Below, one piece after another: positions 51,449 through 58,827 of a stretch of 64,000 nt of DNA. Position numbers and translations under genes: made by a program. Under the pieces are notes generated by a model. That model saw only the letters and a program-made list of their open reading frames with translations, did no database searches and had not been told where the DNA came from. Within the stretch, counting starts at the first letter, position 1, and each line of letters begins with the position of its first letter. Origin of the DNA: a virus (lineage: Duplodnaviria; Heunggongvirae; Uroviricota; Caudoviricetes); the IMG/VR virus record IMGVR_UViG_3300018430_000002. The stretch is one strand, 5' to 3'.

Positions 51449-52849
51449 ATGCATATTAGTATTCCAGTCGAACATACTATTGAATTGCTTAACTTCACTC
51501 CCATAAACCCCCTTATTTCCAAGTGCGAAATTAAGGTGTGTTATGTGGGAGAAGACCCTAATAGAAACCGTAGTATTATTACTAAGGCGGTAGCCACAGA
51601 TATGGCTAAGACCTTGCCGGGTTCGCCAATTGTAGGTTACTATAATGAGGCGAAAGGTGACTTCGAGGAACACAATCGTATGATTGATGTTTCTAATGGA
51701 AAATTTAATATTATCGATACTACCCGCCCATATGGTTTTGTTGATTTAGGGGCTAAAGTCTGGTTCCAAAAATTCTTGGATGATGGAATAGAGCATGAGT
51801 ATCTTATGACCGAAGGTTATATTTGGTCTGATATTTATCCAGAATCTAAGCGGATAGTTGAAAAAGGAAATAACCAGTCTATGGAACTTCATAATAAACT
51901 AACCAAAGGAACTTGGACGACTGATGATAATGGAATGCCAAAGTTTTTCATTATCAACGAAGCAATTATCTCAAAACTTTGTATTCTTGGAGAAGACGTC
52001 GAACCTTGTTTCGAGGGTGCTGGTATTGCCGCACAATTCTCCATTGATGGGGACTTTAAAGCTAAGCTTTTCTCCATGATTGAGGAATTGAAGACAGCTT
52101 TACAAGAAGGAGGAGCTACTCATATGGAAAAGAATGAGAACATCATGATTGAGAACGAAAATCAGGAAACTGAAATCGTCCTTGATAATCAGGATGAATT
52201 CAAGAAAAAGTCCAAAGAGGAAGAGGAAGAAGAAGAAGAAAAGAAACCTCCTTTCCCTCCAAAGAAGGACGATGAATCCGAAGGCAAGTCTGAAGAGTCT
52301 AAAGAAGACGATGAAGATGATGACGAGGATAAGAAAAAGAAGAAAAAGATGAATCATGCTAAGGAAAATGAAGAGGAAGACGAGGAAAAGTGCCCTGATT
52401 GTGGCAAGCCAAAGTCTGAATGTACTTGTGAAGAAGATAAGAAAAAGAAGTACAACCTTGAAGAGATTCCTGAGTATGTAGAACTCGCTAAGGAATATGC
52501 ACTCGCAACTGCTCGTGTAGCAGAGCTTGAAGCTGAAATTGCTCCTTTGCGTGAGTTCAAAACTGCCGCTGATAAGAAAGAAAAGGAAAATATGATTAAT
52601 AGTTTCTATATGCTTTCTGATGAAGATAAGGCAGATGTTTTGGCCAACATTGATACATACAGCTTGGATGATATTGAAGCAAAGTTGGCAATTCTATGTG
52701 TTCGTAACAAGGTAAGCTTTAGCCTTGACGAAGATAATAAAGAAGAAGCTGAAGCAAGTCTTATTTATAATGTGACTGCTGAAGACGGCAATGACAATGC
52801 ACCAGCTTGGATTAAAGCTGTGCGTGATACTGCCAAAAACATGATTTAA
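51449..52849 (+). CDS. prohead protease/scaffold-like protein with Lys/Glu-rich linker and coiled-coil C-terminus
   Basis: ORF track 466 aa. No TAG. Confidence 0.45.
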   Translation: MHISIPVEHTIELLNFTPINPLISKCEIKVCYVGEDPNRNRSIITKAVATDMAKTLPGSPIVGYYNEAKGDFEEHNRMIDVSNGKFNIIDTTRPYGFVDLGAKVWFQKFLDDGIEHEYLMTEGYIWSDIYPESKRIVEKGNNQSMELHNKLTKGTWTTDDNGMPKFFIINEAIISKLCILGEDVEPCFEGAGIAAQFSIDGDFKAKLFSMIEELKTALQEGGATHMEKNENIMIENENQETEIVLDNQDEFKKKSKEEEEEEEEKKPPFPPKKDDESEGKSEESKEDDEDDDEDKKKKKKMNHAKENEEEDEEKCPDCGKPKSECTCEEDKKKKYNLEEIPEYVELAKEYALATARVAELEAEIAPLREFKTAADKKEKENMINSFYMLSDEDKADVLANIDTYSLDDIEAKLAILCVRNKVSFSLDEDNKEEAEASLIYNVTAEDGNDNAPAWIKAVRDTAKNMI

Positions 52850-52867
52850 TTAAGGAGGAAGCTTAAA

Positions 52868-53557
52868 ATGGCTTTTAAGAGTTTATCACAGGCCAAGATG
52901 GTTAAGCGTGGTTTTGGCCAGGTTGAACCCAATCACCTTAGCGCACGCTTTACTGGTGAAATTTACGGCCAGCTCCCAGCAAAGGCTGATATCGAAGTCC
53001 TTGAGCAGGGTCAGTTCGTAAAGTATAATTATGCTGCTGGTGTTGTTGATTTCGAGGGTCCCGGTGAGTGGATGCTTGTTAACAACGAAATTAAGATTTA
53101 TCGTGATCATCAGACTGATGAAGATTTCGCTATGATTAAGCGCGATTATAATGCTTATGTTTATAGCCCAATCGGTCAGAATTCTGACGGTTCTATGGCA
53201 GAAGCCGATCTTACTAAGAATTTCTCTCAAGAGAAGTATCCTTATGACGGCGATCTTCCACGTCTCCCAATTGGTCCTTCCTACGAGCGCGAAGTTCTTG
53301 AAGTTCCCGCTTACATGAAGGCTGGCGAAGTCATGGTTCCACGTGTATGGAAGACCCATGAAGGCGATATCTTTACCACTAACATGGTTCAGGCTACTTT
53401 TGATGAAGTTAAAGTTGGCGATTTCCTTAAGATTGGCGAACAGGGCATTTTGACTCCTGGCGGCGATATTGAGGCTGACAAGATGGTATGGCAGATTGTT
53501 AAGAAGTACACCCTTCCTGACCTTCAGCCTGCTGTTAAGGTAATGCGCGTTAAGTAA
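52868..53557 (+). CDS. head-associated hypothetical protein
   Basis: ORF track 229 aa. No TAG. Confidence 0.45.
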   Translation: MAFKSLSQAKMVKRGFGQVEPNHLSARFTGEIYGQLPAKADIEVLEQGQFVKYNYAAGVVDFEGPGEWMLVNNEIKIYRDHQTDEDFAMIKRDYNAYVYSPIGQNSDGSMAEADLTKNFSQEKYPYDGDLPRLPIGPSYEREVLEVPAYMKAGEVMVPRVWKTHEGDIFTTNMVQATFDEVKVGDFLKIGEQGILTPGGDIEADKMVWQIVKKYTLPDLQPAVKVMRVK

Positions 53558-53581
53558 TTTAGGAAAGGAGAGTATATAGCT

Positions 53582-56976: not shown

Positions 56977-56999
56977 TCACTGTTCTAAGGAGGGATAAA

Positions 57000-57743
57000 A
57001 TGAACCCTCTAATGTTAATGACTGGTGTTGATATTCCATTTCCAGAAATTTAGATGGCTGTTCATTAGCCAACAATTCTAGAAATCTCATATATTGGAGA
57101 ATTGAATTATTTTGCGGGCCTTCAATTATTATGTATTGATAAAAATACATTAGTGTTAAGTTCTGCAGAGGACAATTCTAGATTAGGTTCTATGAGTAAT
57201 TTTTAGATATTTATGACAATGATGACTGAACAACAACCTGGCATGGAGGACAAAAAGGCACAAGTTATTTAGGTTTTTGAATTACTCTTCCCAGGCTATC
57301 GTGTTCAGTTTACTCCAAGATGCCTATTTTTTAATAATGGCCAAGGTTCGTCTTTCACTCTTGATGATGTAACTTTTGAGAAATTTCAAGAAATACTTAA
57401 ACCGCAAGTTTCTATTTTTAAAGGTGCTGATGGTGGTTATAATCCCGTTGGTAGAAAAGCATAGGAAATTGCGAATAAGTTAATGAAGGGTAAACAAAAG
57501 GTTGCTGAATTGAAAGGTGAAACTCGTAATCAAGGTGGCATTTTGTCTAGATATGTTTCTATTCTCACAATAGGTCTAAATACCATGTCATTTTAGGACT
57601 GTTTGAATTTGACTGTCTATCAAATGTTTGATCTGGTTGAAAGATACGGCCTATATGTCTCGTGGGATTTAGATATAAAGTCTCGGTTAGCTGGTGGCAA
57701 GCCAGAGGATAAACCCGATGACTGGATGAAAAATATACATTGA
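57000..57743 (+). CDS. structural protein with about 7 in-frame TAG codons
   Basis: RBS GGAGGG plus ATG 57000. Hand translation reads through to TGA at about 57741. Confidence 0.35.
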
Positions 57744-57765
57744 TTATTAAAGGAGGAAACAACCA

Positions 57766-58827
57766 ATGAAATTTGGCGTACGCGAAATTTGTGACGTAGT
57801 ATTACGTCGTAAGGCCGCTGGTTGGTTCGGTAAGCTTTATTTGGAAAAGGACATGCCTGTTCTTTTCTTTGATACTTTGAAGACCTCTAACCTTGAAGGC
57901 GCAGCTACTACTGTTTATGCTCAGGGTGGTAAAGGTAATCCTCGTCTTGTTGCTTGGGAAGGTGACCGTACCGTTACTTTCACTATGGAAGACGCATTGA
58001 TTAGTCCTCAGAGCTTCTCTATTCTTTCTGGTGCTGGTTTCATGGATGCTTCTAGTGAAAAAGCTATCTATGTTCACCAGACCGGTCAGCTTGAAATTAG
58101 TACTGATGGCAATTTGAATTTTGAAACCAAGCCTTCTGCTGGTGAAGCTGGTAAGTTTGCAGATATGTATTTGATGCTTTTGGATGAATATGGTAATATT
58201 AATACTAACTTCATGCCTATTATGATTAAGCCTGAAGGCCGTAGTGATAATGAACCTGGTGTTTATGCAGAATCTTATCCTGTAAATGGCGAAGGCGAAA
58301 GTCTTGTTAATAAGATTAAGGCTTTCATTGTAGATTATAATGAACGTAATAAAACTGTAAATGGTTTTAAGCCATTAGAGTATACTGTTAATGAAACTCT
58401 TATCAAGCCTACTGAAGATGCCTCTGTTGAAGAAATTGCTGCTTACAATAAGGCTAAAGCTAATAACATCGTTATTGGACCTGGTACTGTAGTTTTTGTT
58501 GACTATTATGTAAAGGCTGACACTGGTGTTAAGCAGATTGATATCGAAGCTGATAAGTTTGGTGGATCTTACTATCTTGAAGCTTCTACCTTGTTCCGTG
58601 ATCAGGGTACTGGTGAAGACCATCCTGCAGAGTTCGTTATCCCGAACTGCAAGGTTCAGTCTAACTTTACCTTCACCATGGCTCCTTCCGGAGATCCTTC
58701 TACTTTCACCTTCACAATGGACGCTTTCCCGGACTATACTAAGTTTGATCGCACTAAGAAGGTTCTTGCCGCACTTCAGATTGTTGAAGACAAGGCTGGC
58801 TTCGGCGCTCTTACTGCCAAAGCTTAA
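57766..58827 (+). CDS. major tail protein (putative)
   Basis: ORF track 353 aa. No TAG. Terminator at 58845-58878. Sits upstream of the chaperone/tape-measure pair. Confidence 0.5.
   Translation: MKFGVREICDVVLRRKAAGWFGKLYLEKDMPVLFFDTLKTSNLEGAATTVYAQGGKGNPRLVAWEGDRTVTFTMEDALISPQSFSILSGAGFMDASSEKAIYVHQTGQLEISTDGNLNFETKPSAGEAGKFADMYLMLLDEYGNINTNFMPIMIKPEGRSDNEPGVYAESYPVNGEGESLVNKIKAFIVDYNERNKTVNGFKPLEYTVNETLIKPTEDASVEEIAAYNKAKANNIVIGPGTVVFVDYYVKADTGVKQIDIEADKFGGSYYLEASTLFRDQGTGEDHPAEFVIPNCKVQSNFTFTMAPSGDPSTFTFTMDAFPDYTKFDRTKKVLAALQIVEDKAGFGALTAKA

Follow-up and report, generated by a model that had tools for sequence, protein, structure and literature searches.

Reassignment of TAG from stop to glutamine in late genes, accompanied by suppressor tRNAs, is established in crAss-like, Lak, and other gut phages. 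One proposal is that, depending on the gene family, recoded stop codons become enriched or depleted under selection (Borges et al., bioRxiv 10.1101/2021.08.26.457843). Only the enrichment was tested, and the enriched families are lysis genes (same source) and, in crAss-like phages, also a tail tube family (PMC7886860). Here, we describe how TAG is distributed over the late genes of the Caudoviricetes record IMGVR_UViG_3300018430_000002, of which we analyzed a stretch of 64,000 nucleotides, called "the window" throughout. The window is part of the genome, about 170 kb in length, of a Bacillota siphophage that reads TAG as glutamine (Gln), carries a CUA suppressor tRNA, and is related to Phass-1 (OQ749652).

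Phass-1, assigned to the proposed Phassvirus group and to the "Caudoviricetes code 15 clade", is the closest described relative, with 51% identity in the major capsid protein (MCP). It has a large, siphovirus-like genome with about 36 tRNAs, CUA suppressors included (PMC10607447). As in Phass-1, TAG interrupts the genes for TerL, the portal, and the tape measure protein (TMP) in the window and leaves those for MCP, the tail tube, and the neighboring head proteins intact, although the two phages belong to different genus-level lineages with 30–50% protein identity. The Phass-1 paper (PMC10607447) mentions TAG in TerL and TMP in passing, among signature proteins, and neither analyzes nor explains the bias. 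Like the code 15 gut phages, the phage studied here has its own CUA suppressor tRNA, uses TAG for Gln, concentrates TAG in structural genes, and has close standard-code relatives. Unlike in the studies of those phages, the signal here is a depletion of TAG in the apparently most abundant virion genes, while the TAG-rich genes look neutral rather than enriched.

TAG content of late genes in the window and its relatives

Once TAG is read as sense, the late module (45444 to beyond 64000, plus strand) is a contiguous operon, and all counts below are in-frame TAG codons per late gene under this reading. Five genes of the module contain none. These are the phrog_3313 gene (51449–52849), whose product has an acidic/lysine-rich middle; g52868 (phrog_35301; 52868–53557), directly upstream of the MCP gene, with one CAA and 11 CAG codons; the MCP candidate (phrog_4088, precomputed accession PF27364; 53582–54625), with no CAA and 12 CAG; g54700 (phrog_30998; 54700–55269); and the candidate gene of the major tail (tube) protein (phrog_2729, labeled "virion structural protein" in PHROG, precomputed accession PF27173; 57766–58827), with no CAA and 8 CAG. 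Interleaved with them are genes that do carry TAG. Specifically, TerL (47703–49445) has 9 and the portal gene (49827–51425) has 7, both genes being identified by PHROG matches; the connector-like genes g55275 (55275–55745), g55742 (55742–56044), g56044 (56044–56988), and g57000 (57000–57743) have 1, 1, 2, and 6, respectively; and the partial TMP gene (61382 to beyond 64000) has 32 in about 870 codons.

These counts bear out a preliminary description of the locus, which had reported that the major capsid gene, the major tail gene, g52868, and g54700 avoid TAG and that the interleaved terminase, portal, connector-like, and tape-measure genes contain it; the depletion recurs in relatives. The same description had listed two further TAG-free head genes, beginning at 56044 and 56557. 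These are in fact the two halves of the single gene g56044, joined by a sense TAG at 56551–56553 (its other TAG lies at 56974–56976): the PHROG match crosses the junction, 22 of 22 standard-code orthologs read through it as a single open reading frame (ORF), and the ortholog in Enterococcus phage VRE9_2 is one ORF of 353 aa. The observation holds in part: it is right, and highly significant, apart from this one mis-split gene and the phrog_3313 gene, whose complete lack of TAG belongs to this lineage rather than to the relatives in general.

A uniform random distribution of TAG across the late genes is contradicted by the window itself. By gene length alone, the probability that all five genes would be TAG-free is 2e-11. 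Per Gln codon, TAG accounts for 0 of 44 in the five genes and for 81 of 222 in the other late genes (P = 2e-9), and the comparison of TAG with CAG between the two sets is stronger still (Fisher p = 6e-15).

We then turn to related genomes, for which we retrieved 80 related loci (L001–L080); 57 of them require TAG as sense and 23 use the standard code. Dereplication at 95% TerL nucleotide identity left 31 recoded lineages in addition to the window. In the recoded relatives, TAG occurs at 0.03 per 100 codons in the MCP gene, 0.04 in the tube gene, 0.11 in g54700, and 0.12 in g52868, compared with 0.6–3.3 in the other families. Among the dereplicated lineages, the MCP gene is free of TAG in 29 of 32, the tube gene in 24 of 27, g54700 in 26 of 31, and g52868 in 23 of 32, while TerL, portal, TMP, and g57000 are free of it in none. 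Within each of the 31 recoded lineages, the TAG share of Gln codons in these four genes is lower than in the other late genes (median 0 versus 0.35), with p < 0.01 in 30 of 31, and Phass-1, at 30–50% protein identity, has the same depletion pattern. The rare TAG codons of the MCP gene are single-lineage events in otherwise invariant Gln columns, as expected for young, mildly deleterious CAG-to-TAG mutations, to judge from the alignments.

The phrog_3313 gene, which had been described as a TAG-free protease or scaffold gene, behaves differently. Its zero count in the window stands, involves only 6 Gln codons, and is not significant by itself; in relatives, its depletion is only intermediate, with a TAG share of 0.20 and no TAG in 3 of 32 lineages, the window counted. 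The product is possibly scaffold-like.

The same comparison bears on a possible mosaic origin, according to which the TAG-free genes came from standard-code phages too recently for TAG to have accumulated. The GC content of 0.415–0.418 in the 52–56 kb region, above that of the flanking late genes, would fit such a gain, as would the interleaving of standard-code and recoded lineages in the family. However, all 31 diverged recoded lineages, as well as Phass-1, show the depletion, and the tube gene, which lies apart from the head block, has the same pattern. The window MCP stands at 0.68–0.71 relative to standard-code relatives and at a median of 0.69 relative to recoded ones, and TerL and portal are likewise no closer. 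Furthermore, CAG does change to TAG in the MCP gene, but the change stays a singleton. Horizontal acquisition of the TAG-free genes thus appears largely refuted by these comparisons, and we give a mosaic origin almost no credence.

Codon bias and the origin of the depletion

To place TAG use within overall codon usage, we computed the first principal component (PC1) of relative synonymous codon usage with the Gln codons left out. PC1 explains 36% of the variance in the window and 67% in the relatives. Its end favoring TTC, ATC, TAC, AAC, GGC, ACC, and AAG is occupied by MCP, g52868, tube, g54700, and phrog_3313, in this order, with MCP as the extreme of the axis. The corresponding TAG shares are 0.008, 0.028, 0.021, 0.058, and 0.20, so that the order of TAG share roughly mirrors that of PC1, with g52868 and tube swapped. 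TAG share and PC1 are correlated with rho = -0.79 in the window and rho = -0.85 in the relatives.

The standard-code relatives show the same axis and the same gene ranking without any use of TAG. In these relatives, the CAG fraction is 0.52–0.77 in the abundant-type genes compared with 0.15–0.36 in the others, and both their PC1 and their CAG fraction predict the TAG share in the recoded relatives (rho = -0.75 and -0.74, respectively). Since the TAG-free genes form the extreme of a general codon-bias axis that is also present in standard-code relatives, their depletion points to purifying translational selection. Odds ratios computed for the abundant genes are 0.009 for TAG versus CAG, 0.115 for TTG versus CTG, and 0.117 for TAG versus CAA (p = 4e-47). 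In these genes, TAG is therefore avoided about 12-fold more than an ordinary non-optimal codon, which argues that suppression is costly.

The other late genes show no corresponding excess. Their TAG/(TAG+CAG) ratio is 0.80 compared with a ratio of 0.86 for TTG/(TTG+CTG), an analogous pair of synonymous codons that differ at the first position, and their CAA, CAG, and TAG codons stand at about 55:9:36, roughly an AT-biased three-state equilibrium. TAG in the low-copy late genes thus appears to be near mutational equilibrium, without over-use. In these genes, CAG makes up 9% of Gln codons in recoded genomes and 24% in standard-code relatives, with AAA/AAG and GAA/GAG unchanged; this disproportionate displacement of CAG by TAG would qualitatively fit a single-step C-to-T conversion.

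This near-neutral level matters for the proposal, made in the preliminary description, that TAG density works as a translational rheostat or timer rather than as a uniform code change. As an adaptive rheostat, suppression would be inefficient by design, and the number of TAG codons per gene would be selected to set the output of low-copy proteins. There is indeed a coarse inverse relation between TAG load and presumed copy number, dozens of TAG codons (at least 32 in TMP) would presumably compound small losses per codon, and Borges et al. did propose a regulatory role for selection that enriches some gene families in recoded stops and depletes others. However, the TAG share of the low-copy genes is close to the neutral benchmark rather than above it. 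Nor is it graded by virion stoichiometry among these genes, as the proposal would have it: TerL, portal, the connector-like genes, and TMP, whose products have very different stoichiometries, all lie within a flat range of 0.34–0.47.

The positions of the TAG codons do not suggest tuning either. TAG sites interchange freely with CAA, such that a site that is TAG in the window is TAG in 16% of recoded lineages, and a site that is CAA in the window is TAG in 15%. An enrichment near 5' ends, which had been suggested as well, is not seen, given that the mean relative position is 0.48 for TAG and 0.51 for CAA/CAG (Mann-Whitney U test, p = 0.58) and that the TAG share is flat over deciles of gene length (0.21–0.33). 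A TAG excess in the first 30 codons of the window genes is marginal (9/40 versus 13/134, p = 0.054) and does not appear in the relatives. In addition, the number of TAG codons per gene is no more conserved than Gln content and drift would predict, and standard-code relatives, which lack TAG, rank the genes in the same way by ordinary codon bias. Because there is no TAG excess, no gradation of the share, no site conservation, and no 5' enrichment, we consider a tuned rheostat highly improbable. What stands of the proposal is that TAG use is non-uniform, is maintained by selection, and splits high-copy from low-copy genes; evolved control finds no support in the tests that we ran.

A second possibility is gating, in time or by independence from the suppressor: the TAG-free genes could be translated before, or without, the suppressor tRNA, letting the building blocks of capsid and tail accumulate first, while portal, terminase, the connector-like genes, and TMP would be held until the code switch. 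It follows directly from the sequence that the TAG-bearing genes cannot be completed without a suppressor, the idea is consistent with the late-gene gating model of Borges et al., and the early and middle genes on the minus strand are nearly TAG-free and share the CAG/AAG-rich style of MCP, with a high GC content at third codon positions (GC3). However, the TAG-free genes lie among TAG-bearing genes of one co-directional operon. We detected no strong promoter dedicated to them, the only 12/12 consensus sites being at 45398 and 60699. The intermediate values of phrog_3313 and g54700 also fit a gradient of expression better than an on-off gate. In tailed phages, the action of portal and scaffold normally coincides with or precedes assembly of the capsid shell, and for this reason delaying portal relative to MCP would have no obvious benefit. 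We therefore regard gating as unlikely. Combining the two ideas gives two deliberate tiers of translation, with MCP, tube, g52868, and g54700 free of the suppressor and every low-copy protein of assembly, packaging, and tail completion both gated and throttled. In that case, the order in which the virion is assembled and its stoichiometry would both depend on the code switch, but we find this combination quite unlikely.

Altogether, these results make it likely that TAG has been removed from the most needed virion genes by ordinary selection for efficient translation, for which no deliberate dimmer is required. The phage would decode TAG as Gln through its own CUA suppressor tRNA, and in most late genes TAG would be a near-neutral third Gln codon that has drifted to about 35–40% of Gln codons in an AT-rich genome. 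In MCP, the major tail protein, g52868, g54700, and, in part, phrog_3313, strong translational selection would favor CAG, AAG, and C-ending codons and purge TAG hardest. The cost could arise from a single phage tRNA competing with host RF1, leading to slower decoding of TAG and to occasional premature termination; termination would waste the costliest proteins, and truncated subunits could disturb assembly. TAG density would then be a passive read-out of the selection on each gene for translational yield and accuracy rather than a tuned knob. If suppression is incomplete, TAG-rich genes might be throttled passively as a by-product, although their TAG load shows no sign of tuning. The actual levels of expression, the incompleteness of suppression, and competition with RF1 as the source of the cost are what we infer from this pattern.

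Several observations weigh against explaining the depletion by selection for translation. First, the TTG/CTG pair, against which the TAG/CAG ratio was set, is only an approximate neutral reference. Second, in the window alone, TAG versus CAA gives p = 0.08, and avoidance of TAG is there inseparable from avoidance of all non-CAG Gln codons; the two can be separated because of the data from relatives. Third, the early and middle genes on the minus strand are TAG-poor with the same CAG/AAG/GC3-rich codon style as MCP, and independence from phage tRNAs, or timing, could contribute to the pattern. Specifically, TAG makes up 6 of 168 Gln codons in the minus-strand early and replication genes and is absent from the large GC3-rich ones, except for a single TAG in e22420. 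Fourth, a tail tube family of crAss-like phages is reported to be preferentially recoded (PMC7886860), the opposite of the TAG-free tube gene found here, and the rule may fail in some recoded clades.

The remaining points of this kind concern the identity and abundance of the TAG-free products. Abundance is something that we infer from function, synteny, homolog labels, and hairpins. The AlphaFold model of MCP, built on a shallow alignment, has a pLDDT of 56, and its best Foldseek hit has E = 0.03; 19 of the top 20 Foldseek neighbors of this low-confidence model are HK97-fold capsid proteins or encapsulins, which makes the protein a candidate HK97-fold MCP with weak fold support. The tube model, likewise of low confidence (pLDDT of about 56), has no informative structural neighbors. 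Searches of PDB sequences with single sequences and profiles of MCP, tube, and g52868 gave nothing useful, the matches to GFP being due to chance.

The role of the tube protein is supported by homologs in Bacillus, Lactococcus, and Enterococcus phages that are labeled "major tail protein" or "virion structural protein", as well as by synteny with VRE9_2. The two strongest terminator-like hairpins of the late module directly follow the MCP and tube genes: a strong hairpin and T-run at 54647–54673 (+), which could be a terminator or a stabilizer of mRNA, and a 14-bp hairpin and T-run at 58845–58876 (+). The hairpin after MCP is conserved in relatives, with a median of -23.3 kcal/mol over 70 nt, second only to that after g60751 (-23.4), and with a T-run in 66%. 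On the basis of their TAG and codon pattern, g52868 and g54700 are predicted to encode high-copy head proteins, g52868 a head or assembly protein.

Glutamine decoding, the suppressor tRNA, and the rest of the window

Reconstruction of ORFs shows that the long plus-strand frames from 45444 to the end of the window are open only with TAG as sense, and PHROG matches cross TAG codons in TerL, portal, TMP, and g56044. In standard-code orthologs, Gln is the modal residue facing the TAG codons of the window, and 63 of 89 conserved alignment columns that contain TAG are Gln columns. Conversely, TAG is present in at least one genome in 81% of conserved Gln columns, in 6.6% of Glu columns, and in no Trp or Tyr column. 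For each gene family, the combined share of CAA, CAG, and TAG in recoded relatives equals that of CAA and CAG in standard-code relatives. Because TAG faces Gln columns and never Trp or Tyr ones, the alignments indicate that TAG is Gln, despite an unusual suppressor tRNA. Reading as Trp, Ser, Tyr, or Leu, an idea raised by the 93-nt, tRNA-Trp-like form of this suppressor, is rejected in favor of Gln on the same conserved columns. The 17 complete late genes terminate in TAA (11) or TGA (6) and never in TAG.

The suppressor tRNA (10744..10836, minus strand; 93 nt) has the anticodon CUA (CTA in DNA) and was found both by ARAGORN and by the Rfam tRNA model, at 57.5 bits. It belongs to a tRNA array on the minus strand at about 8.5–16.3 kb, in which ARAGORN reports 32 genes and the Rfam tRNA model 34 matches. 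Its acceptor stem, with A1-U72 and G73, is tRNA-Trp-like, and its anticodon arm, CCGGT-CTCTAAA-ACCGT, almost matches that of the phage tRNA-Trp(CCA) at 11275–11348 (-). The suppressor may derive from tRNA-Trp and be charged with Gln. Its variable region holds an extra insert of about 20 nt. Two further tRNA-like sequences were reported by Rfam only and missed by ARAGORN: 8728–8789 (-), at 52 bits, which is truncated and spans model positions 6–65, and 15286–15357 (-), at 36.9 bits.

MCP proteins identical to that of the window are found on contigs of up to about 177 kb. The more distant cultured relatives are standard-code siphophages of Enterococcus, Bacillus, Lactococcus, and Clostridioides, and, by these relatives and the labels of metagenome-assembled genomes, the host is probably a member of the Bacillota. 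Standard-code and recoded members interleave in the family at less than 25% TerL+portal protein distance, a pattern which implies, as far as these distances can tell, that the code switched more than once or recently.

The gene order of the late module corresponds almost gene for gene to that of Enterococcus phage VRE9_2, the only difference noted being the position of the phrog_6123 gene. The module is headed by a sigma-like gene (45444–46514; PHROG match; 2 TAG) and the phrog_3314 gene (46518–47699; 3 TAG), and the tube gene is followed by the tail genes g58912 (58912–59445; 5 TAG), g59461 (59461–60702; 9 TAG), and g60751 (60751–61284; 1 TAG), all on the plus strand. Perfect sigma-70 consensus promoters (TTGACA-17-TATAAT, with an upstream TG) lie at 45398–45426 (+), just before the sigma-like gene, and at 60699–60727 (+), just before g60751; a divergent 11/12 site lies at 45386–45358 (-). 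Between TerL and portal lies an HNH homing endonuclease gene (49457–49813, +; PHROG match) with 3 TAG, which include a tandem TAG-TAG. The same HNH gene occupies the same position in the standard-code VRE9_2, and a paralog at 43574–44308 (-) has an in-frame TAG as well.

Outside the late module, one or two plausible sense TAG codons each occur in genes for a PhoH-like ATPase (5561–6388, -), a 310-aa protein (7333–8265, -), and a 684-aa Cys-rich protein (22420–24474, -). The AT-rich ones among the non-late genes with TAG resemble the low-copy late genes; TAG use therefore tracks codon style across the window and not only within the late module. The block at about 28000–44000 differs in composition, with a GC content of about 0.5, an AT skew of -0.12 to -0.21, and a GC3 of up to 0.75, compared with 0.13–0.47 in the late genes. 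It holds only small ORFs under each stop assignment tried, and recoding of TGA or TAA there is rejected, given that no code tried opens long ORFs. The real genes of this block are apparently small and on the minus strand, e.g., 36954–37523 (phrog_5889, E = 4e-39). At the other end of the window, a TAG-terminated ORF of 525 aa (141–1718, +) has no Pfam match and an odd, low-complexity-like translation, and may be a shadow ORF.

Implications and comparison with known systems

The distribution described here constrains how stop recoding in phages is read and sets a limit on models of recoding as regulation, since, with a suppressor in place, most TAG use in this family resembles neutral drift. 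What reveals selection is the loss of TAG in the highest-yield genes. This loss would mean that suppression has a measurable cost, and it bears on the lysis-timer hypothesis. There are also practical consequences. MCP is ill suited as a marker gene for spotting recoding in such phages, and annotation and marker-based surveys are biased because standard-code gene callers leave precisely the abundant structural genes intact. Relative expression or copy number could, in turn, be estimated from sequence alone by the share of TAG among Gln codons. Our literature searches, whose coverage was incomplete, found no explicit report of TAG depletion in the abundant virion genes of recoded phages; an earlier report may exist.

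Among known systems, the one closest to a rheostat or timer is that of bldA and TTA codons in Streptomyces, in which one temporally regulated tRNA gates a set of genes. There, the targets have one or a few TTA codons at specific, recurring locations in the gene, e.g., adpA (PMC10732093). In contrast, TAG in the phage is abundant, positionally unconstrained, freely turned over, and at neutral frequency.

T4-like phages, cited by Borges et al., have their strongest codon bias in the most abundant virion genes, and their large set of phage tRNAs complements late codon usage. The phage described here resembles them in both the strong bias of the most abundant virion genes and the large tRNA set. 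It differs in that its least-favored synonymous codon is a recoded stop, which turns TAG into a near-binary marker of the bias.

The nearest parallel to the depletion comes from a ciliate, in which reassigned stop codons are under-used in highly expressed genes, a pattern attributed to translational inefficiency or to stronger selection for canonical codons (PMC10553269). The phage shares this under-use of a reassigned stop in genes that are presumably highly expressed. The ciliate differs in that its code applies to the whole organism, its release factor is adapted, and the reduction is modest, whereas the phage uses a standard-code host, presumably with RF1, and its depletion is near-complete. 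The penalty on TAG may be larger in the phage than in ciliates, given that host RF1 is presumably present. With this depletion, a principle known from ciliates gains a clear and well-replicated phage case, useful though not surprising.

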